UHGV virus genome: UHGV-1353844
DNA from: a virus
DNA length: 64,000 nucleotides
Reading direction: 5' to 3' (one strand)
This document shows, piece after piece, positions 48,758 to 59,460 of the stretch. A program made the translations under genes and the position numbers. Numbering within the stretch: position 1 is the first letter of the stretch; each line of letters opens with the position of its first letter. The notes below the pieces were generated by a model, which was not told where the DNA came from, did no database searches, and was given only the letters and a program-made list of their open reading frames with translations.

Positions 48758-48801
48758 AAAAAATAAAAAAGAAAGGTAGTAGGGGCTTAGCCCCTACTAC
48801 C
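48758..48801 (-). terminator. rho-independent terminator (minus strand)
   Basis: GGTAGTAGGGGC-TTA-GCCCCTACTACC followed on minus strand by TTTCTTTTTTATTTTTT. Confidence 0.65.
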
Positions 48802-48960
48802 TAATATTTATTTCATTCCGTTCTGAGAAAGCGTTGTCCCTGTAAGATGCGTAATAACGATCTTAACAGGCAATAGACGCTAACACCACCACACCAGTGA
48901 TGTCTTCTGAAAGTGTCGGTAGCTCGCGAATGCGTACCTTTCCTACCAGTTCAGCCACTA

Positions 48961-49473
48961 TTAACCACCAAAGGTTAAGACGCGATTATCTGCGGTAACG
49001 ATTAAATCGTTGTCTTTTACTACAGCGGCTTCTTCGTCGTTACCGAAAACCAGAACGGAGAATTGGCCTTTATAACCTAACGAGTTGGGTGAAACCTGTA
49101 ACGTTACAGCGTCTTTCCCTACGGTAAATGATTCGTCGGTAAGATCGTCGGGTTGTAAATTACAACCGCAAGCCGCGTTAATTCCGTCGATTAGATCGTG
49201 TGCGGTAAAACCATTACCGGAAACCTTTACCAGAATAGGTTGCTGGTTTAACCACCGCTCTGCGGTTAAACGGTTGTAATAGATTTGTAACGTTCTGTTA
49301 CCAGGACGTTTTATCTTTACAACAGCAGTGGTGTCACGATCCATTTCGTTACTGGTCTTTACGTCGCTGACTTCAACCTCGTTCTCTTGCAGGTCGAGCT
49401 GGAGGTCATGGTTAACCAGTGAAATAACCATGTTAAGTGAAGTTAACGACAAATCAGGCGTGAATTGTTCCAC
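48961..49473 (-). CDS. hypothetical protein, paralog of 58897..59460
   Basis: 170 aa; N-terminus PDLSLTSLNMVISLVNHD… and internal …CG(C/T)NLQP(D/E)DL… shared with the 187-aa protein. Confidence 0.45.
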   Translation of the reverse strand: MEQFTPDLSLTSLNMVISLVNHDLQLDLQENEVEVSDVKTSNEMDRDTTAVVKIKRPGNRTLQIYYNRLTAERWLNQQPILVKVSGNGFTAHDLIDGINAACGCNLQPDDLTDESFTVGKDAVTLQVSPNSLGYKGQFSVLVFGNDEEAAVVKDNDLIVTADNRVLTFGG

Positions 49474-49525
49474 GTATGGTTACCTCCTATGATTGGGGAG
49501 ACATAAAATGTTGGCTAAAAACATT

Positions 49526-49542
49526 TCACCCCCCCCCCGATT
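49526..49542. repeat. homopolymeric C10 tract (G10 on coding strand); shared flank TCA-Cn-GATT
   Basis: TTTCACCCCCCCCCCGATTA in the leader of gene 48961..49473. Confidence 0.5.
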
Positions 49543-49572
49543 ACGTTTTCAAGCACATTCGCTTGAAAATTA

Positions 49573-50076
49573 TTAACTAATCTTCAAATCTCTTAATGTG
49601 CCGGTTGATTTCATCACGTTTTGGAAAGCAGTGCTAATGTTAGAGGTCCAGTAATAATGTTGACCATTAATAACCTGCTGATAGGCTACCGTACAAGTGT
49701 TGCCGCCTAGATTTACGGTGATGTTAGAAGCTCTCCCACCTTGTAAATAGACCGCTAAACTTGGTTTTGCATCAGCAGCCAATGTGATCAATAGTAGTTG
49801 GATACCAATAAGTGTGCCTACGCCGCAGCTACCAGGATTCTGAATAGTCCCTTTATTTTTCTGCGCTAACGGCCAGTTTGGTCCCACCGCACCCCAAAAT
49901 TTAGCCATTGAATCGCTATATGCAGCAGTTGCGATTTTACAGCCAAGAGATCGGCCCACCATTTGACTCATCATAAAAGGTCTACCCAATCCTAATTTAC
50001 TACCAGCAGCACTCATCCATTGTTCGCCCGTTTCGTTCTTGGCCGAAGAACCGACCCATCCAGATGCTACCCCCAT
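49573..50076 (-). CDS. gp38-like adhesin paralog (shared N-terminal fibre-binding module, distinct C-terminus)
   Basis: N-terminus MGVASGWVGSSAKNETGEQWMSAAG… matches N-terminus of adjacent glycine-rich adhesin; no glycine-rich region. Confidence 0.45.
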   Translation of the reverse strand: MGVASGWVGSSAKNETGEQWMSAAGSKLGLGRPFMMSQMVGRSLGCKIATAAYSDSMAKFWGAVGPNWPLAQKNKGTIQNPGSCGVGTLIGIQLLLITLAADAKPSLAVYLQGGRASNITVNLGGNTCTVAYQQVINGQHYYWTSNISTAFQNVMKSTGTLRDLKIS

Positions 50077-50136
50077 TATACCCTATCCTTTTGAAAGGTG
50101 TGAGGAGGGGAGTGAGTATCCCCATACTTTTTCAAA

Positions 50137-50919
50137 TTAAACACGTGAACCATATATTGCACCTACTGCGTCCCATCTTGGCGCATTACCTCTAACGGCT
50201 GCACCAGCGGCTCCGCCGTTATATTCTGTACCGTTACCATGAGTATTACATCTTCCTCCAGCAGCACCGACATTACCACCCGAACCGCCTGTATATGCAC
50301 TAAGAGACCCCTCACCAACAGATCCTCTACCAGGAGCGGAAATAGTACCAGCAGCTGCACCGGAACTCATATGTGAGGAAGACCCACCAGCACCGAATGG
50401 GCGACCACCGCCACCACCAAATATTAGTCTACCCCTGTTACCGCCGCCACCGCCGCCACCGCCTCCGGCAATAGCGCCACGGTTGGTTATACGCAGTCTG
50501 TTTCCTATTCCGTTCTGTATTGCGGTTCCACCTGCACCGCCTGGTGAGTTAGAACCGCCGTTGCCTCCTCTGCCGTATACTGTAACCCCAGGATTGATGA
50601 TGAGTGTAATATACGAATTTGGAAGATTGCTAGGGAATTCTAAACAAGGAACCCCGCTACTATAAGACACTAAATCCCCTGTAATGGTCACAACGACAGC
50701 ATTAGAGCCTATAGAACGTAAATAGTTAATAAGCGTATCTTTATTGTAATTGTGATTAGCCCCGATCGAATACTGAACCTCTTTTGATTTTCCCGCCAAT
50801 TGCGACATCCAGCCTGGAACCGGCACACCAAGTGTGCGCATCGCGCCAGACATCCAATCGTTACCAGTTTCAGCTTTTGCTGAAGAACCAATCCAACCAC
50901 CTACGCCGACAACTGCCAT
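50137..50919 (-). CDS. gp38-like tail-fibre adhesin (T2-type, glycine-rich motifs)
   Basis: N-terminus MAVVGVGGWIGSSAKAETGNDWMS… and poly-Gly tracts (GGGGGGGGGN, GGGGGRPFGAGGSS) typical of T2/T6-type gp38; immediately downstream of the long tail fibre gene (TAATG overlap). Confidence 0.55.
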   Translation of the reverse strand: MAVVGVGGWIGSSAKAETGNDWMSGAMRTLGVPVPGWMSQLAGKSKEVQYSIGANHNYNKDTLINYLRSIGSNAVVVTITGDLVSYSSGVPCLEFPSNLPNSYITLIINPGVTVYGRGGNGGSNSPGGAGGTAIQNGIGNRLRITNRGAIAGGGGGGGGGNRGRLIFGGGGGRPFGAGGSSSHMSSGAAAGTISAPGRGSVGEGSLSAYTGGSGGNVGAAGGRCNTHGNGTEYNGGAAGAAVRGNAPRWDAVGAIYGSRV

Positions 50920-53900
50920 TAGGATCTTCCTTTAATTTCGTTAACCTCTTGACGCAACGCTTTCATACCCTCTACTAACAGCGCAATAACGCCATTGTAG
51001 TTTAGACGTAAACGTTTTTCGCCTGAAATGGCATCATCATCCTCAGACACAAGTTCAGGTAACGCTTCTAATGCGTCTTGAGCAATTAGACCTACCGAAG
51101 TGTTCCAACCGTCGTCTGGATGTTGAACCTCGTACAGATAGCCGGTAAGCGCTTCTAACCGATCCAAAGCCTTATCCAGCTTCACCAGATTACGTTTGTT
51201 GCGACGGTCAGAACGAATCTGTACGTCGTTAAACGAACCGTTACCGTTGCTAGAAATGTTATGACCAAAGGTTACTTGACCGTTAGAGTTATTAAAATAC
51301 AACGGACGTAGTCCGTTCCAGGAACCCGTTGCGGCTTGTCCGGAGTCGGTTACTAAGAAATAGGTATTGGCACCATCATTACGTAAAATGAAACCGCAGC
51401 TACCGTAAGCGATTCGGAAATCAGCATACTTCGTAACCAGTTTACCGTTAACCGTTAAATCGCCAGTGACAGTACCGCCGCTGTTCTTCAAAAACAGCGC
51501 ATCAATCCAGCCTGCAAATCCTGACTTATTGATGTATAAATTTCCATCATTTGCCAGAATGCCGCCACCCGGCGTCTTGAGAGGCTGACTCACATTTTGC
51601 AGCGTCAGCACACCATTCAATTGACCGCCAGATAATGGCAACGCCCCAACATCCGCAGCAGTTGGCTTGTTTTTCGTATTGTAAGCGCGACGCCAACCTG
51701 GTGAGTAAGCATCACCGTTATTTACGTAGATAAACTCCGCATTAGTGAGTGCGCCGCCGACGCTCGTCGTTGTGGGGGTCGTTATACGGATCGTGTAGTT
51801 GTTTGCGCTGTTACTAATCACTTCTATAACAGCCCCAGCTAACGGAATAACACCACAACCCGTCTCGCTGTTCGGTATGGACGCACTAGCAGCATAAGCC
51901 CATGCACAGCGAGCAACCCATGATTTTGTGGTAAACGCGCCGTTATTTTGCAATAACGTCACTAGCTGTGCTGTAGTTATTGCGCCGCCGTCTTTACCAG
52001 TCTCCAACCAACCAGTGGGCGAAGCCGGACAACCTATATCGGCAGGCCCTAACGATATATTTCTAGTACCGTCAAATGCGATACCGTTAATGGTACGCGC
52101 TGTCTGCAACTTTGTTGCCGTGGCTGCGTTTCCGGTAGTCGACTGATTACCCGTCTGGTTTACACCGGGCAGACTAATGTCTTGCGAACCGTCAAAGTTA
52201 ACACCGCCGATCTTACGTGCTGTTTGTAACTTAGTAGCGGTCGCTGCATTACCTGTCGTATTCTGGTTGCCTTGCTGGTTAACCCCCGGTAAATTGATAT
52301 CCCCAGTACCGTCAAAGGTAACGCCGCCGATTCTGCGAGCGGTTTTCAGTTTCGTCGCGGTAGCGGCATTGCCAGTAGTATCCTGATTACCGGTGGTATT
52401 TACACCAGGAATACTGTCACGGGCAGTATAAACTTGTGCCCAATCTGACCACGGCGCATCAGCCGTATCGCGTCGACTACGAATATAAACGGGTGCGTGT
52501 GCACCACTCGTGCCCGACCAACCAATTAACAACTCACCTTCGCCTAGCGCATTAGCACCACCTAAGTGCAGCAAGTTACCATAGGCGGTTGGATAACCGT
52601 TATTGTAAACTTCGTACATCTGGATACCAGGTGTACCCTTGTTCGACCCGGTCAGAGCGGTAACCCGTCCACGACCTACCAAGGTGTTGATATTGATGTC
52701 TCCAGAGCCATCGAATTTCACACCGTTAATATTTCTGGCGGTTTGAAGTTTAGTGGCTGTCGCGGCGTTACCTGTGGTGTTTTGATTACCTTGTTGGTTA
52801 ACACCTGGGAGGTTAACGTCGCCGCTGCCGTCGAAAGCGACCCCGCCAATTCTACGCGCAGTCTGGAGCTTAGTGGCGGTTGAAGCATTGCCGGTTAACT
52901 CACCTGCTAACCCTTTTGCAAAGGTCTGTTTCTCTGCCCAAGTGTGGGCTGCGTTCAACACAGGCATCTGTCGTGGCGTAATCGTACGGCTACCCTTCTC
53001 GCCAGCGATACGTACTGCAAAGAAGCGATAGTTAGCAGTAGACACTGTACCGCGCCAGACCAACATACTCCGACCAGTACCGGTGTCCTCTGACGCCCCT
53101 ACGAGAATACTGACCAAGTTACCGTCAATAACACCCCAATCCATTCCCGCAGGAATGTTTTTCATGGTATTCAACGGTGTACTTATCATCTGGCCAGGAA
53201 CGAAATCGAAGGTTTGCCAGTCTAACGGATCGACCTTGGCAGCAACCCCACCGATCCCTAAAGCCAACGGGAGTGAATAGGATGTGAAAATCTCTCGCCA
53301 TTCGCTCCAGGCGTTTCCTGTACGAATTCGTTGGAACTTGCGACCTTTCGTAGTTGCGCCTGTACCGTATGTGGTATAATTTTGTTCAACGCCTGAACCG
53401 TCTAAGCGTAAGGTAACTTCGCAAACACCTAACAAGGTTGCGCCAGCAGAGTCTGTTAACGGACCGTCAGTAGCCTCACCGGTAACACTAAAACGACCAG
53501 GTTTAGTTAAGTCATTAAAGCTACCCTTATAGTAGGCACCGTCTACCTGATACCCAACTTGAATCCAATCTTCCCACTGTGGATTAGACGCATCCCAAGT
53601 CGCAGTCAACCCACGGACATACATCGTACCACGACGAGTGGTGTAACGTTGCATACGTCCGTAGAGACCACCTTCCATTACTTCTAATACACCTTGAGCA
53701 TTACCACCTTCTTCGGGATAATGACGATCGAACGTCGCAAGAGAAGAACTGGAGTTACGCCACTGACCCATGTGTTCAACACCACCTAAAGTGTTAAGGT
53801 CAATAGTGGTGGAGAGCGGACGGTTCGCGGTAGTTGTCATTCTCCAGGGCGACCAAGGGCCGTTAGTACCGTTCCAGGTTCCTGTTAAACGACGAGTATA

Positions 53901-55385
53901 GACGTTACCGTTACGTATGGTAAAACGTTGGCTTCCGCTGTAGTTACCTGCTTTGAATACCTCTAAGTAACCAACTGCATCGTCTTCCGGGAAGTTCTTT
54001 GCAATTGTTGCATTCGTAGACGTGGCTTTAGACCAGACACCCATAAACGCTTCGACTGGGCCGAAGGTGTTGATATCCGCATCTACTGCCATTTCCCCAT
54101 TAAACTTCAAATACGTCTCTGCTGACAACCCGATGTTCTTCGCGAAGGTGACTTTATCTGGAATATCGGCACCGTTAGAACTGCGTTGCATAGCACCCGC
54201 AGCTTTATCAACAGTGGTTTTCAAACCCAGGAAGTTAATGATATCTGCCGTCGACCCTTTCGCTAACAAATCACGCGCAGTCGAGGTGAAATCCGCTAAC
54301 CCTACCTGATTACTACCGGTAAAGTAAGGGAGTTTGTTTGCAGCGGTGGTGACTGCGGCAATCGCTGTCAGTAACGGACTTAACGGCTGTTTACCCGCGA
54401 GTTGGTTCGTCATCGTTGTCGCAAAGTTAGGATCGTTTCCTAACGCAGCTGCAATTTCTGATAACGTATCTAACGTCTCGGGTGAAGAGTCCACTAATTC
54501 AGCAATCGCTTGCCGTACCCATGCGGTCGTTGAGACGCTCGTGTCGTTAGAATCCGAAGCAGGTGTTGGTGCTTTTACCACACCGGTAAAAGTTGGGTTG
54601 TGACGGTTTGCTTTTAACTGCAAATCTTCATTTAACTGCTTAACCGTTGACGGCGTAGCCGCTTCAGTAACAGAGTCACTGCTTAAGGTATTATTAAGTC
54701 TAACGATACCTTTACTGGTCGTTGTTGCATCAACGTTACCTTTTGCAGCGATTTCTTCTGCACGCTTAGCCGCTGCCTCAGAACGCGTTGCCGCATTCTC
54801 TGCGGTTTCTTTGTCTGTGGTAACTTGCGTTGCTGTAGCTTCTACAGCGGCTTTTGACGACTCTACCGACGCGACAGCTTCGTTAACTGCCGTAAGCGAC
54901 TGTTCGACTTGACCGGCTTGTGTGGCAACAGTTTCTGCTTTCTTCGTAACGGTAGTCACCGCTTGTGTGACGTTGGCCTCGCTTGCCGCTACCGCTTGCG
55001 CTTTCTCATTAACGGACACAACCTGGGTATCTACCGCCGTTTTCGCGGCTAACACTTCAGTGTGTTTTGTACCGACTTCAGTTGCTTTTTCGGTTACAGT
55101 TTGCGCTTGTTGAGCAACTGTAGCCGCAACGGTGTCAGTTTGTTGTTTTGCTGTTTCTGCTAAATTCTTTGCTTGTGTAGCCTGAGTTGCAGCTTCTTGT
55201 GATTGTGTTGCTGCTGTTTGTGCATCAGACACCGCATTACGTACGGTGTCAATATCTGCAACGATCTCACGGACAGGTAACTTATAATCTTTCTCATCCT
55301 TGGAAAAAAGTAAAACACCTTCACCTATATCCCCGGTGTATGGACGTAAATCGTGTAAACGAATTTTCTTTACCGCTTTAGCCAT
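50919..55385 (-). CDS. long tail fibre protein with C-terminal intramolecular chaperone (peptidase S74) domain
   Basis: 1488 aa: N-terminal anchor, Ala/Thr/Gln-rich coiled coil, six Phage_fiber_2-type repeats (TGNAATATKLQTAR-I-G--FDGS), C-terminal SDRRNKRNL…GLIAQDALEALPELV matching auto-cleaving chaperone domain. Confidence 0.75.
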   Translation of the reverse strand: MAKAVKKIRLHDLRPYTGDIGEGVLLFSKDEKDYKLPVREIVADIDTVRNAVSDAQTAATQSQEAATQATQAKNLAETAKQQTDTVAATVAQQAQTVTEKATEVGTKHTEVLAAKTAVDTQVVSVNEKAQAVAASEANVTQAVTTVTKKAETVATQAGQVEQSLTAVNEAVASVESSKAAVEATATQVTTDKETAENAATRSEAAAKRAEEIAAKGNVDATTTSKGIVRLNNTLSSDSVTEAATPSTVKQLNEDLQLKANRHNPTFTGVVKAPTPASDSNDTSVSTTAWVRQAIAELVDSSPETLDTLSEIAAALGNDPNFATTMTNQLAGKQPLSPLLTAIAAVTTAANKLPYFTGSNQVGLADFTSTARDLLAKGSTADIINFLGLKTTVDKAAGAMQRSSNGADIPDKVTFAKNIGLSAETYLKFNGEMAVDADINTFGPVEAFMGVWSKATSTNATIAKNFPEDDAVGYLEVFKAGNYSGSQRFTIRNGNVYTRRLTGTWNGTNGPWSPWRMTTTANRPLSTTIDLNTLGGVEHMGQWRNSSSSLATFDRHYPEEGGNAQGVLEVMEGGLYGRMQRYTTRRGTMYVRGLTATWDASNPQWEDWIQVGYQVDGAYYKGSFNDLTKPGRFSVTGEATDGPLTDSAGATLLGVCEVTLRLDGSGVEQNYTTYGTGATTKGRKFQRIRTGNAWSEWREIFTSYSLPLALGIGGVAAKVDPLDWQTFDFVPGQMISTPLNTMKNIPAGMDWGVIDGNLVSILVGASEDTGTGRSMLVWRGTVSTANYRFFAVRIAGEKGSRTITPRQMPVLNAAHTWAEKQTFAKGLAGELTGNASTATKLQTARRIGGVAFDGSGDVNLPGVNQQGNQNTTGNAATATKLQTARNINGVKFDGSGDININTLVGRGRVTALTGSNKGTPGIQMYEVYNNGYPTAYGNLLHLGGANALGEGELLIGWSGTSGAHAPVYIRSRRDTADAPWSDWAQVYTARDSIPGVNTTGNQDTTGNAATATKLKTARRIGGVTFDGTGDINLPGVNQQGNQNTTGNAATATKLQTARKIGGVNFDGSQDISLPGVNQTGNQSTTGNAATATKLQTARTINGIAFDGTRNISLGPADIGCPASPTGWLETGKDGGAITTAQLVTLLQNNGAFTTKSWVARCAWAYAASASIPNSETGCGVIPLAGAVIEVISNSANNYTIRITTPTTTSVGGALTNAEFIYVNNGDAYSPGWRRAYNTKNKPTAADVGALPLSGGQLNGVLTLQNVSQPLKTPGGGILANDGNLYINKSGFAGWIDALFLKNSGGTVTGDLTVNGKLVTKYADFRIAYGSCGFILRNDGANTYFLVTDSGQAATGSWNGLRPLYFNNSNGQVTFGHNISSNGNGSFNDVQIRSDRRNKRNLVKLDKALDRLEALTGYLYEVQHPDDGWNTSVGLIAQDALEALPELVSEDDDAISGEKRLRLNYNGVIALLVEGMKALRQEVNEIKGRS

Positions 55386-55417
55386 GATATTTAATTCTCT
55401 ATCGGGAGCTAAAAGAT

Positions 55418-55444
55418 CTGGGGGAGGTAAAGCACCTCCCCCAA
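55418..55444 (-). terminator. hairpin between 1001-aa gene and long tail fibre gene (possible partial terminator)
   Basis: TGGGGGAGGT-AAAGC-ACCTCCCCCA; weak T-run on minus strand. Confidence 0.35.
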
Positions 55445-55463
55445 CATTTTTATAAGCGGGTTA

Positions 55464-58400
55464 TTATTGCTCCGGTTTTAATGGAACATCTTCTATCGTT
55501 AACGTAACGTCTAAGACCGCTTGACTGTGGTCAGTAATCGCTAAGTCACGATAAATATTAGCGTTGGGTCCGTAGGTTTTATAAGTAACGTAGAGACCTA
55601 ACGCACGTAGCACTTCTCCAGTGTAGAACCCATAAGCCATTCCGTTATCAGAAGACTCTCGAGCGGCTGGAGACCACGCTCCATTAATCGGCTTATTCGG
55701 AATTGAGGTAATCGTAAACCCTTCACCTAACTCCTTAATTGCCGCATTAACCACTTTTTCGTAGTTCGGATTCGTTGCACCGGCGAGTAATGCCCAGCAA
55801 CACCCTGCTAACCACAACCCACACATATGTGCGGTGAAGTCGTTTTCCACCCAAACAGCTTTATCCGGTGCTGTAGGGAACTCGTTAGGAGTGTGGCCGT
55901 TAAACCGATCCACAAACCCACCTAGCCAATTCACCCAGTTGTCAATATAGGTTGTTAACGCCTCGGGAACGTCTTTACCTCGCAGTTTCAGTTCGTACCA
56001 ACACCGACACGCAGCATGAAACGCGCGAGGCTGATACCCTGCCCAAGGATGGTCATCACCCCAATGGAACGTCGTCCAGGTATCCGCTTCTCCGTAGCTG
56101 TAGTTGTCCCAACGGTTCCAGATATAAGCTGCGCAACCAGGTCCTAATTCCCCAATTTGCTGTTGGTAAGCCAACTGCGAATCGTGCAGGAATTGAATCT
56201 GGTTATCTAACCACAACTTATACCGGTCGTCTTTGTGGATACTGTACATAAACGGATACTGATAACCTGGATAAGGCATCCCGTGCCAAGCACCTAACTG
56301 TTCTGAACCTTCTAAGTAGCTGTTCGTGAACGGTATCGTACCCGGACAGTACGCTAACGAATCCAATCGGTAATCTACAATCGTACAATCACCCACCTTT
56401 GCATCAAACTCTGCACCACCGCGTAAGGCAATACGGAAGGTTAAAATATAACCATCGTCTTTATTAAAGACCGGTGGGACATCGTTAACACAATAGTAAG
56501 CAAAGTGTGCATGGTCAACTGTGGAGTCAGGAAGAATCGTGACCTGATCCACCTTATCGAAATTCGGTGCTGAAGGTTTAGGGTCAGCGTCTGTGTGGTC
56601 TGGCTGATAACCGGAAAGTGTGGCTTCATCCGGATTCAACGTTACCTGACGCCATTCGTTGTTTGTGTTGGGTAACATCCACCACCAAAGCCAGTTATCA
56701 CTGTCGACTAAACGCAAGTTAAAATCTGCGTCTGCACGGTAAACAATAGAAACGGGTTTTACCTTCTCTTCAGCGGTTAACCAAAACCCGATAATAAACC
56801 CGGCACTGTCATCAGGAAATTCCGCTTCTACCACGGTACCCGCGCGACCATCGTAAATGCTATCCTCAAAACGTTCTTCCCACGTACAACCACCGTAGTC
56901 CGAACACGCACGGGCTTCAGCTATCAGGTAGTCTCCCCCTTCTGGGGTGGTAATACGGGAAAGTTGGCCTAAGTCAACATCGTACTGTTTAACGGTATTT
57001 ACCGTAGACCGAGGTAAGGTTAAACCGTACCAGTTTACCTCCTCGGTATCAGCTTTCGCAGGGTTAATGTTCACCATCACTTTACAGTAGACAGGATCGC
57101 CATTCTTACAAACTCCACCGTACGTGACACGTAGTTTAGAGTCTTTGTTAATCCTGAACCTAACCGCTTTTTGCTCCATAAAGTGCTGCGCCGCTTCAGG
57201 CACGTGGATGGTAATGTCTCCATTCTCATCACGGCCGTAGGTGGCACTTACGGTATCTGGGTAATCGAAATCGTACGAAATACCGTCAGTAAACGGTGTA
57301 TCCGCAGCGGTAGAACGACGGAAGAATTTATCTGTCGCATCAATATACGTGTACTCATGTGCGGTGTAGAAAGCACAGTCTAATGCTTGTTTGTATTTCT
57401 CTTCACCTGTGATTCGCCACAGCAAATAACAGGCGTCGATAAACCACAGTTCAGCATCAGCGGCGTTACCGTATTGGTTTTTCGACCCTAAGAACGGTGT
57501 GTGGACCGGACGGTTGTGCCACGGCTCATTACGTTTAAATTCGTAACCGCCGTGTTCGACAGGAAGTTTTACCGCGTAGTTAATTAAATAGACACCGTTT
57601 AACTGTGTGTCTTTTAACTGTACGGTACCTTTATCAGCGTCTGCTAATCCCGTCTCAATAATTTCACCATCCTGGATTTTGTTACCCGTCCAGGCAATTA
57701 TCCAGTCAACGTCGTGTTTAGGAGCTTTTGTTGCAGAGCCGCCCCAAAGCGGGGTGTAACCTGTAGTATTATTTAGCAGTGTTGGCCAATCGACCCAAGC
57801 TGTGCTTTCGTAAGGCTTATCAGGATTAGTAATAACGTGAGTTAAAACGTCTTCCCAATTAATCGACCCTTCTTTGTCTTCCTTGATAATCTGTACATCT
57901 GCGTTAATCGCGGCCCAGGCAGGGTGGCCACGATATGCAAACGTACAGATATCCAAATACTCTCCCCAGAAAGGTGCACCGTGCGGTATCTTACATTGGC
58001 CATTTGTAAACCTTACAGGAACACATTTATACCCGCCGTTGGTAGGTTCCGTAGGGTGAATAGGATAGTGTGCTAATACCGGTTCTTTCCCGTTTACTAA
58101 CCAGTTACAAATCCGACGCTGGGGTGTTGTCGGAATAGGCTGTCCGGCGTAGAAGTACGTGTTGTACGCATCCCAGGCGTGTTTCGCAGCATCTAACCAT
58201 CTTTCGTCTTTTGTTGCGATATACATGTGGCAATAACCGATAATGTGTAACGACTGACCCTCGGTCGTTGCGTCACCGTTCGGTTGGTATTCCGCCATGG
58301 TATCAGCGATGAAATGACGGTTATTCGACAGAACACCTTCTTCGTTTTGAATGTAATGATCGATATGTGCGTCGTTAGTCGTTCCCGTATTCCGGGTAAC

Positions 58401-58469
58401 GAAGGATTGGTGACCGTAAGCTAACGATAACGCGTAGCTAATCGCGTGACGCTGAAAATGTTTTCTCAT
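55464..58469 (-). CDS. large Trp/aromatic-rich protein (1001 aa), putative receptor-binding enzyme (tailspike/depolymerase-like)
   Basis: Start codon immediately follows stop of the small anchor-bearing gene (TAAATG); function inferred only from context and composition. Confidence 0.4.
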   Translation of the reverse strand: MRKHFQRHAISYALSLAYGHQSFVTRNTGTTNDAHIDHYIQNEEGVLSNNRHFIADTMAEYQPNGDATTEGQSLHIIGYCHMYIATKDERWLDAAKHAWDAYNTYFYAGQPIPTTPQRRICNWLVNGKEPVLAHYPIHPTEPTNGGYKCVPVRFTNGQCKIPHGAPFWGEYLDICTFAYRGHPAWAAINADVQIIKEDKEGSINWEDVLTHVITNPDKPYESTAWVDWPTLLNNTTGYTPLWGGSATKAPKHDVDWIIAWTGNKIQDGEIIETGLADADKGTVQLKDTQLNGVYLINYAVKLPVEHGGYEFKRNEPWHNRPVHTPFLGSKNQYGNAADAELWFIDACYLLWRITGEEKYKQALDCAFYTAHEYTYIDATDKFFRRSTAADTPFTDGISYDFDYPDTVSATYGRDENGDITIHVPEAAQHFMEQKAVRFRINKDSKLRVTYGGVCKNGDPVYCKVMVNINPAKADTEEVNWYGLTLPRSTVNTVKQYDVDLGQLSRITTPEGGDYLIAEARACSDYGGCTWEERFEDSIYDGRAGTVVEAEFPDDSAGFIIGFWLTAEEKVKPVSIVYRADADFNLRLVDSDNWLWWWMLPNTNNEWRQVTLNPDEATLSGYQPDHTDADPKPSAPNFDKVDQVTILPDSTVDHAHFAYYCVNDVPPVFNKDDGYILTFRIALRGGAEFDAKVGDCTIVDYRLDSLAYCPGTIPFTNSYLEGSEQLGAWHGMPYPGYQYPFMYSIHKDDRYKLWLDNQIQFLHDSQLAYQQQIGELGPGCAAYIWNRWDNYSYGEADTWTTFHWGDDHPWAGYQPRAFHAACRCWYELKLRGKDVPEALTTYIDNWVNWLGGFVDRFNGHTPNEFPTAPDKAVWVENDFTAHMCGLWLAGCCWALLAGATNPNYEKVVNAAIKELGEGFTITSIPNKPINGAWSPAARESSDNGMAYGFYTGEVLRALGLYVTYKTYGPNANIYRDLAITDHSQAVLDVTLTIEDVPLKPEQ

Positions 58470-58934
58470 TTAGTAACCCGCTGCAAGAAGAGAACCTTTC
58501 CAAGTGGCACCCCCGTCAAGGGTATAAAGCGACAGAGTGTCTTCCGCATTTGCCGTGTAGGATAAAACCGGTTTTGCACCGTGAGGCCACTTAACGTTTT
58601 CAGGCCAGGTTACTTTATTCGCCCCTGTTCCCTGCTTAAACGTTAGCATTACTTCGAAACGGGTATTTTCCGCAACGTTAGTAAGGGCTGCGAACGTCAC
58701 CGTAGTAGTGGGATCGTTTAACACCAGAATAATGTCAGTGCTGGTATTGAAATCCAACGTGGCGGCATTATTCGAACCGTTAACCGTGGTGACTGTCGCA
58801 ACCGGGGCTAACTTATCAACATCAATTTTATATTCTTTATTGTCTTTGCTATACAGCAGTACCCCGCCCTGCGGTGTGCCTGCGTAGCTTTCGAGCTCAT
58901 GGAGTCTCGTCTTCTTCAGTGCTGTCGCCATCTG
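58470..58934 (-). CDS. small protein with N-terminal long-tail-fibre-like anchor
   Basis: Start set to ATG at 58934 (GAGG SD): MATALKKTRLHELESYAGTPQGGVLLYSKDNKEYKIDV parallels fibre N-terminus MAKAVKKIRLHDLRPYTGDIGEGVLLFSKDEKDYKLPV. Confidence 0.45.
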   Translation of the reverse strand, partial: QMATALKKTRLHELESYAGTPQGGVLLYSKDNKEYKIDVDKLAPVATVTTVNGSNNAATLDFNTSTDIILVLNDPTTTVTFAALTNVAENTRFEVMLTFKQGTGANKVTWPENVKWPHGAKPVLSYTANAEDTLSLYTLDGGATWKGSLLAAGY

Positions 58935-59460
58935 TAACCTCGAATGTAAGAACGGCATTGTCACCAATACAGAAGATTGCATCTTCTTCGTTTGCTAATG
59001 CCCGTTCGGTTGTATCAAACAACGTCACCATAAACGCGTTCATCCACGCAGGAGAATCGTCGGCAACGTTAACGGAAATGGGATCGTTACCTAAAGTGAT
59101 ATCTGAAGCACGTAAATCCTCGGGTTGTAAGTTCGTTCCGCAGAATTCATTTACAACACTAAGAATGTCACGAACGTTGTCTTCAGTACCGTCTAACGAA
59201 ATCAGAATGGGTTCATACGTTAATACTTCATCTGCGTCGAGTCTGTCGTAATAAACCACAACAGACGCACCATCTGGTTTTCTGATTTTACTGATTTCGG
59301 TAATGGTGTTACGACGCGAAGTTGTTGGAGATGAGTTTGTTACGGTCCCGCTAATACGTATTTCGTTTAGCGTAAGCTGTAACCCATTATCGTGATTGAT
59401 TAAAGCGACCACTAGCTCTGCTGAGGTCAGACTCAAATCAGGTACGTATGGTGTGGCCAC
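58897..59460 (-). CDS. hypothetical protein, paralog of 48961..49473
   Basis: 187 aa; GTG start with GGAGGG SD; acidic C-terminal tail. Confidence 0.45.
   Translation of the reverse strand: MATPYVPDLSLTSAELVVALINHDNGLQLTLNEIRISGTVTNSSPTTSRRNTITEISKIRKPDGASVVVYYDRLDADEVLTYEPILISLDGTEDNVRDILSVVNEFCGTNLQPEDLRASDITLGNDPISVNVADDSPAWMNAFMVTLFDTTERALANEEDAIFCIGDNAVLTFEVTDGDSTEEDETP

Follow-up and report, generated by a model that had tools for sequence, protein, structure and literature searches.

One stretch of 64,000 nucleotides of the virus genome UHGV-1353844 (the window, whose numbering gives all coordinates below) encodes a long tail fibre ending in an intramolecular chaperone of the S74 family, followed directly by two adhesin genes whose products share the N-terminal docking domain of gp38. 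I propose that this is an adhesin-capped fibre of the T2/S16 type carried by a jumbo enterobacterial phage, and that the two adhesins are alternative caps for one docking site, a proposal that I hold to be quite probable as a whole. The kind of fibre and adhesin is already known from T2 and S16. What is unusual is the jumbo-phage background, and what may be new is the recurrent arrangement of two adhesins. A literature search of incomplete coverage yielded no description of dual, tandem or second gp38 adhesins, which is weak evidence of novelty. All three genes lie on the minus strand, and the list of open reading frames (ORFs) has each of them where the original prediction put it. Their parts, up to the distal end of the fibre, are these:

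50919 to 55385, minus strand: tail-fibre gene, 1488 residues, mosaic (ORF; Pfam Gp34_trimer and Peptidase_S74; tblastn; many PHROG tail-fibre families)
51297 to 51482, minus strand: Gp34_trimer-like trimerisation domain, residues 1302-1363 (Pfam PF21446, E=2e-16)
51213 to 51296, minus strand: predicted distal tip of the mature fibre, ending ...NGNGSFNDVQIR at residue 1391 (alignment to the S16 gp37 tip, 6F45_A)
50922 to 51212, minus strand: intramolecular chaperone (IMC, Peptidase_S74), residues 1392-1488 (Pfam PF13884)
50137 to 50919, minus strand: long gp38 adhesin gene, 260 residues (Pfam GP38 and Gp38_N; 6F45_D; phrog_2056)
50794 to 50919, minus strand: Gp38_N docking domain of the long adhesin (Pfam)
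50140 to 50781, minus strand: polyglycine-sandwich receptor-binding domain of the long adhesin (Pfam GP38)
50077 to 50136, minus strand: inter-adhesin spacer of 60 nucleotides, with a 5-bp GC hairpin at 50107-50123 (sequence)
49573 to 50076, minus strand: short adhesin gene, 167 residues (Pfam Gp38_N; phrog_1121)
49957 to 50076, minus strand: Gp38_N docking domain of the short adhesin (Pfam)
49576 to 49944, minus strand: compact β-sandwich head of the short adhesin (AF2)

The C-terminus of the fibre was originally predicted to be an S74 chaperone, and it is one: Peptidase_S74 (PF13884) matches residues 1392-1446 at E=1.6e-10, scoring 41.5 bits where the cut-off is 22, and the last ~140 residues align to S16 gp37 (6F45_A) at E=4e-14. 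That alignment takes in the cleavage motif, with ...NDVQIR-SDRRNKRNL of the fibre opposite ...RDLNVS-SDRRIKKDI of S16. Members of family S74 have a Ser/Lys dyad at the cut site. The fibre has a serine there and a lysine five residues later (IR^S1392-DRRN-K1397), as in the S16 pattern SDRRIK, and cleavage is predicted between R1391 and S1392, with K1397 the fifth residue past the serine. The Gp34_trimer region further upstream matches the structures of T4 gp34 and of Mu/P1 fibres.

Cleavage at that position would leave a tip ending ...NGNGSFNDVQIR, the predicted docking surface for an adhesin. This motif is identical in L006-L012, seven related loci, and nearly the same tip is found on fibres followed by a short adhesin only (P13374 and CMS-2020a CP054387; L006-L008 are also of this sort) and on a fibre followed by a long adhesin only (CMS-2020a CP053388, GGNGSFNDVYIR). 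The motif (N/G)GNGSFNDV(Q/Y)IR is thus used in nature with either adhesin alone, and therefore both adhesins should fit the tip of the window's fibre.

The long adhesin is a gp38 of full length. Pfam finds Gp38_N (PF21721) at 1.5e-15 and GP38 (PF05268) at 3.1e-69 over 218 of 218 profile positions. The protein matches S16 gp38 (PDB 6F45_D) from end to end at E=3e-50, the polyglycine tracts aligned, and belongs to phrog_2056 ('tail fiber protein; host specificity'), so that its description as gp38-like holds. Amino acid identity is 80% to the adhesin of CMS-2020a, 78% to that of Bas45 and 77% to gp38 of JSE, and the ratio of nonsynonymous to synonymous divergence (dN/dS) against these three is 0.18-0.26. 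Its closest characterised relative is gp38 of Bas45, a phage that uses OmpA; in the C-terminal third the two genes are 88% identical at the nucleotide level. One relative, L016 (3319-3978), carries a long adhesin with an in-frame deletion of ~49 residues in the polyglycine region, leaving 211 residues instead of 260, which could reflect slippage between GGn tracts or an artefact of assembly.

The short adhesin has the gp38-type N-terminus attributed to it, with a Gp38_N match (PF21721) at 3.8e-20, and this is its sole Pfam domain. Its match to 6F45_D is confined to residues 1-44, and Pfam, the PDB comparison and the AF2 head agree that the GP38 polyglycine domain is not there. AF2 gives instead a compact β-sandwich without polyglycine (pLDDT >90), a head unrelated to the polyglycine domain of the long adhesin. 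Residues 1-165 match phrog_1121 ('tail fiber adhesin') at E=7.7e-46, over profile positions 1-178 of 181. Identity is 58% to the homologues in Stx phages, 62% to those in SSU5-like phage-plasmids and 39-45% to those in Kanagawavirus and Kosakonia T4-like phages; in Stx, SSU5-like, PEi20 and jumbo phages, homologues of the phrog_1121 type sit behind an S74 fibre. For the head, an exhaustive HMMER search returned only six clusters, of which the credible ones were all adhesins of ~165-170 residues or fragments of them, and gave no evidence of the head fused to a fibre.

These elements suggest the following mechanism. The 1488-residue protein would trimerise, helped by its own C-terminal S74 chaperone, which, by homology to S16, T2, K1F and T5, would then cut itself off at R1391|S1392. 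Cleavage would bare the tip, and one adhesin would dock onto it through the Gp38_N domain of ~40 residues, which is common to the two proteins, bringing with it either the polyglycine-sandwich head or the unrelated β-sandwich. In the structure 6F45 a single gp38 chain accompanies three chains of gp37, hence one fibre should carry one adhesin; and because the tip takes only one, the adhesins are most likely alternative caps. Virions would then bear mixed fibres with two receptor specificities. In favour of docking by either protein, the signature of the docking domain is retained in both, tryptophans of S16 gp38 among it. Alternative capping with mixed virions is, I think, the most economical reading of the locus and the most likely.

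Three considerations weigh against it. Of the tryptophans in S16 gp38 that have been described as docking prongs (PMC7917993), all three are kept in the long adhesin and only two in the short one, where the third position is methionine. The other ~160 kb of the genome could encode a second IMC-bearing fibre that partners one of the adhesins. And the receptors are hard to name: the long adhesin probably binds a porin, with OmpA the best guess, and a weak one, because gp38 receptor specificity can switch with a single residue.

The idea gains from a comparison with related genomes. Other parts of the window match Erwinia phage pEa_SNUABM_29 and SPN3US-like jumbo phages of Salmonella, Proteus and Escherichia, at only ~73% nucleotide identity. 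A look-up of the exact sequences of the 167- and 260-residue proteins found neither on record. A short adhesin 99% identical to the window's (P0001) turns up in a Salmonella assembly and among contigs of sequencing runs, and more distant copies lie on metagenomic contigs of ~225 kb whose gene order is the same as the window's. Because of the jumbo-phage matches and the shared gene order, the window is assigned by sequence to a clade of ~225-kb enterobacterial jumbo phages, with SPN3US, Goslar and the Erwinia jumbo phages as distant relatives.

Thirteen loci of this clade were compared, the window included, and nine of them have two Gp38_N genes. The pair of long and short adhesins occurs in five (the window, L015, L016, L018 and L019). 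Four others (L009-L012) have a Gp38_N adhesin of 181 residues, then a lipoprotein-like gene of 76 residues, then the short adhesin, and the remaining four (L006-L008 and L017) have the short adhesin alone. Among the five contigs with the pair, the long adhesin is 95-98% identical; the short adhesin is 63-85% identical, with two types of IMC and shuffled flanks. Both adhesin genes of the window are intact and under purifying selection, the short one with a dN/dS of 0.095 against L009, at a synonymous divergence (dS) of ~1. No DNA repeat is common to the two Gp38_N coding segments, which rules out a recent tandem duplication; for the same reason the two docking-domain genes appear from their sequences to have been acquired independently.

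The intervening gene of L009 (8557-8787), found also in L010-L012 and not in the window, encodes 76 residues with a lipoprotein signal (MLRKVLLGFALLTVSGC...). Its position between two adhesin genes recalls the lipoproteins beside receptor-binding protein (RBP) genes that block the receptor and exclude superinfection, such as Llp of T5.

Against the closest relatives the window differs by a single block:

50078 to 50931, minus strand: indel relative to L006-L008, comprising the long-adhesin gene and the spacer (blastn)

Homology to L006-L008, at 87-94%, ends at 50932 and restarts at 50077. So clean an indel, in a locus that is highly mosaic, lends some weight to a different account, that only one adhesin works on this fibre and the other is either a passenger of a recent cassette insertion or the partner of an S74 fibre encoded in the ~160 kb outside the window. 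The short-adhesin gene adds to this. Its dS is 0.02-0.04 against L006 and L007, far lower than the 0.39-0.46 of the flanking fibre tip and DUF7941 gene, which suggests, because of that disparity, a very recent horizontal exchange of this gene alone among members of the clade. It is asking a good deal of a passenger, however, that no fewer than five independent contigs keep it beside the other adhesin, amid shuffled flanks and two types of IMC, and that purifying selection act on both genes. Besides the fibre there is no second IMC-bearing ORF in the 64-kb window, and every Gp38_N gene examined, Krischvirus excepted, stands directly after its IMC fibre. I therefore regard the passenger account as unlikely, though worth keeping in mind.

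One might suppose instead that the 167-residue protein is not an adhesin at all but an assembly or capping factor, like T4 gp38 or the Tfa chaperones, needed to mount the long adhesin. Neither downstream protein has a Pfam match to Caudo_TAP or the T4-gp38 chaperone. In L006-L008, L017, Stx and SSU5-like phages no Gp38_N protein but the short one follows the fibre, so there it must suffice as the cap, and those T-even phages that have a long gp38 lack any partner of this kind. Its head, moreover, is more variable than its docking domain, as expected of a determinant of specificity. This account is very improbable.

The original prediction supposed that gp38 normally caps fibres that lack a self-cleaving chaperone, and that the coexistence of the two pointed either to exchangeable adhesin tips or to a previously unseen route of assembly. 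The premise is mistaken. In T2 and T6, gp37 is cleaved proteolytically at its C-terminus before gp38 caps it (PMC3157838, citing Drexler 1986), and in S16 the last 113 residues of gp37, the IMC, cleave themselves off at DLNVS^SDRRIKK, baring the surface on which gp38 docks (PMC7917993); a 2026 preprint says the same of S16. Peptidase_S74 is found by Pfam on gp37 of the T2-like phage Bas45, gp37 of PEi20, ORF65 of P13374 and both CMS-2020a fibres, and a Gp38_N adhesin directly follows each. A survey of IMG/VR with hidden Markov models built for the docking domain and the IMC found 53 loci encoding a Gp38_N protein, and in 52 of these the next ORF upstream ends in an IMC; the exception is a Krischvirus-like contig, from a genus known for its displaced gene 38. 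The canonical arrangement of T2, T6 and S16 is therefore a gp38 adhesin behind a self-cleaving S74 fibre. Exchangeable tips remain plausible, given the precedents in PEi20 and in the window's relatives, and the new assembly route finds no support. The notion of a hybrid between two strategies that normally stand apart has in its favour the presence of both chaperone and cap, and is scarcely credible when the two are halves of one known pathway and stand together in essentially every locus examined. Nor is a shared docking domain with differing heads peculiar to these phages: RB43 and T6 gp38 were noted earlier to have a common N-terminus and unrelated C-termini (PMC3157838).

The rest of the fibre has the following parts:

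55263 to 55385, minus strand: N-terminal module, 41 residues (54% identity to residues 18-58 of ORF 58470-58982)
54741 to 55253, minus strand: Ala/Thr/Val/Gln/Glu-rich segment, residues 45-215 (composition)
52026 to 52910, minus strand: five fibre repeats of ~40 residues (GNAATATKLQTAR-x-GGV-FDG), residues 826-1120 (regex and direct reading)
51642 to 52040, minus strand: domain like P1 tail fibre protein S/S', residues ~1116-1248 (PDB 8ju3_A, E=1.6e-33)

The module of residues 1-41, with its 54% identity to part of the small tail-fibre product (58470-58982), is conserved in the fibres of L009 and other relatives. It is a putative anchor to the baseplate or an adaptor, and this identity backs the N-terminal anchor of the original prediction. 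The next segment, with 43 A, 29 T, 22 V, 17 Q and 17 E in 171 residues, is compatible in composition with a possible coiled-coil stalk. Six Phage_fiber_2 repeats had also been claimed, and these were not reproduced. The whole fibre and its segments gave no hmmscan match to Phage_fiber_2 (PF03406) at E<=1, and direct reading finds instead five repeats of another type, the second and third separated by an insert of ~93 residues, and near residues 223-251 a single TSKGIVRL...ATPSTVKQL motif, which resembles a segment of the Stx-phage fibre that does match the family. In precomputed Pfam results PF03406 does appear for L007 and L009, on their homologous fibres. By tblastn the fibre is 58% identical to that of P1 and 51% to that of Goslar, over about half of the protein, and 56% identical to P2-like fibres over residues 388-1262. 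Its sequence is that of a mosaic: an N-terminus specific to the clade, a shaft like P2 gpH, P1 gpS and Goslar gp090, and a tip of the T-even gp37 type in the last ~190 residues.

The fibre gene and the long-adhesin gene meet at a TAATG junction, where the fibre's TAA is overlapped by the ATG of the adhesin. Between the fibre gene and the gene upstream of it, encoding a tail protein of 1001 residues, a strong GC-rich hairpin of 12 bp is followed by a T-run (55418-55444), which suggests a separate transcription unit for the fibre and the two adhesins. A scan of 48800-55600 for promoters and terminators found promoter-like sites no more common than chance; in the inter-adhesin spacer the sole promoter-like site overlaps the ATG, and the one terminator-like call is on the plus strand only.

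Some neighbouring features deserve mention. An ORF of 170 residues and tail-fibre type (58470-58982, minus strand; probable start M18) has the N-terminal module in common with the large fibre, and its TAA directly abuts, in frame, the ATG of the 1001-residue tail protein (55464-58469; phrog_2871, with a weak GH76-like match). The same split is seen in L006. Because both genes are missing from L007 and L009-L012, they make up a second RBP cassette that is dispensable and may encode a spike in two parts or a fusion made by read-through. The spacer that separates the short adhesin from the DUF7941 gene downstream of it holds a homopolymer G10 (49529-49538, minus strand). The 64 kb contain no other run of its kind, against a chance expectation of 0.03, and the tract could be prone to slippage or be a hotspot of sequencing error. 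Two DUF7941 paralogues, called 'virion structural protein' by PHROGs, flank the receptor-binding gene cluster (48961-49473 and 58897-59460, both minus strand), and this bracketing is kept in all the relatives and in Goslar-like genomes.

If alternative capping is right, one may go further and suppose that the two unrelated adhesins compete for the single docking site, that each virion is a stochastic mix of two receptor specificities and that this is a stable trait across the clade. I put this forward tentatively, with somewhat more doubt than belief. Were it true, it would amount to host-range bet-hedging hard-wired in the genome, unlike the invertible segments of Mu and P1, diversity-generating retroelements or branched multi-spike adaptors, and apparently stable among these gut or enteric jumbo phages of ~225 kb. 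Should both adhesins be mounted, the clade would offer a simple natural model of dual-receptor targeting by alternative caps. The locus is instructive in plainer ways as well. It shows S74 self-cleavage and gp38 capping as two steps of one pathway, correcting the temptation to read them as rival strategies; it suggests that the T2/S16 tip cassette moves as a unit, having here joined the P2/P1-like shaft of a jumbo-phage fibre, and that there is room in the adhesin slot for one or two interchangeable genes. This has practical value for the prediction of host range and for phage engineering.

It remains to set the locus beside the systems it most resembles. One is the gp37-gp38 tip of Salmonella phage S16 (PDB 6F45): tip and IMC align, the SDRR-K motif included, the adhesin aligns over its full length and its gene lies directly downstream. 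The window departs from S16 in its shaft and N-terminus, which are P2/P1/jumbo-like and not those of a multi-protein gp34-37 fibre, in its second, short adhesin gene and in belonging to a jumbo phage and not to Straboviridae. Bas45 (Escherichia phage PaulHMueller, an OmpA-specific Tequatrovirus of the T2/T6 type) likewise has gp37 with Peptidase_S74 (2.4e-15) followed by a gp38 of 260 residues, the one 78% identical to the window's long adhesin, but it has a single adhesin, and its tip reads NAPNVYIR in place of NGNGSFNDVQIR.

A precedent for two adhesins is Edwardsiella phage PEi20 (Kanagawavirus), in which an S74 fibre is followed by two tandem Gp38_N genes, for proteins of 171 and 165 residues. 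Within the region that tblastn matched, their heads share 44-45% identity with the short adhesin of the window; unlike the window, PEi20 has two short adhesins and no polyglycine gp38, in a T4-like genome. The Stx phages P13374 and phi191 (Oslovirus; ORF65 and ORF66) and the SSU5-like CMS-2020a are close at the tip and IMC, which are almost identical to the window's (NGNGSFNDVQIR^SDKRNKRNL) and are followed by a short adhesin of 170 residues, 58-62% identical to its counterpart in the window. Another CMS-2020a record carries the long gp38 instead, 80% identical to the window's. Each of these phages has one adhesin, however, and their fibres are shorter and either collagen-like or different in some other way, in podovirus or phage-plasmid backgrounds.

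The Escherichia jumbo phage Goslar shares the neighbourhood (tail protein, small structural protein, long fibre) and a homologous shaft, 51-73% identical, but its gp090 has a tip of the P1/Mu type, with gp089 (Tfa), a separate Caudo_TAP assembly protein, at the equivalent position, and neither S74 nor gp38. A P1-type tip and its Caudo_TAP protein in so similar a neighbourhood make it evident, as far as sequences can tell, that the tip cassette has been swapped. T5 pb1 and the K1F endosialidase, finally, have the same S74 Pfam family at the fibre C-terminus, but there the mature fibre or spike, once cleaved, itself binds the receptor, whereas the fibre of the window, like those of T2 and S16, is expected to bare a docking site for a separate adhesin.

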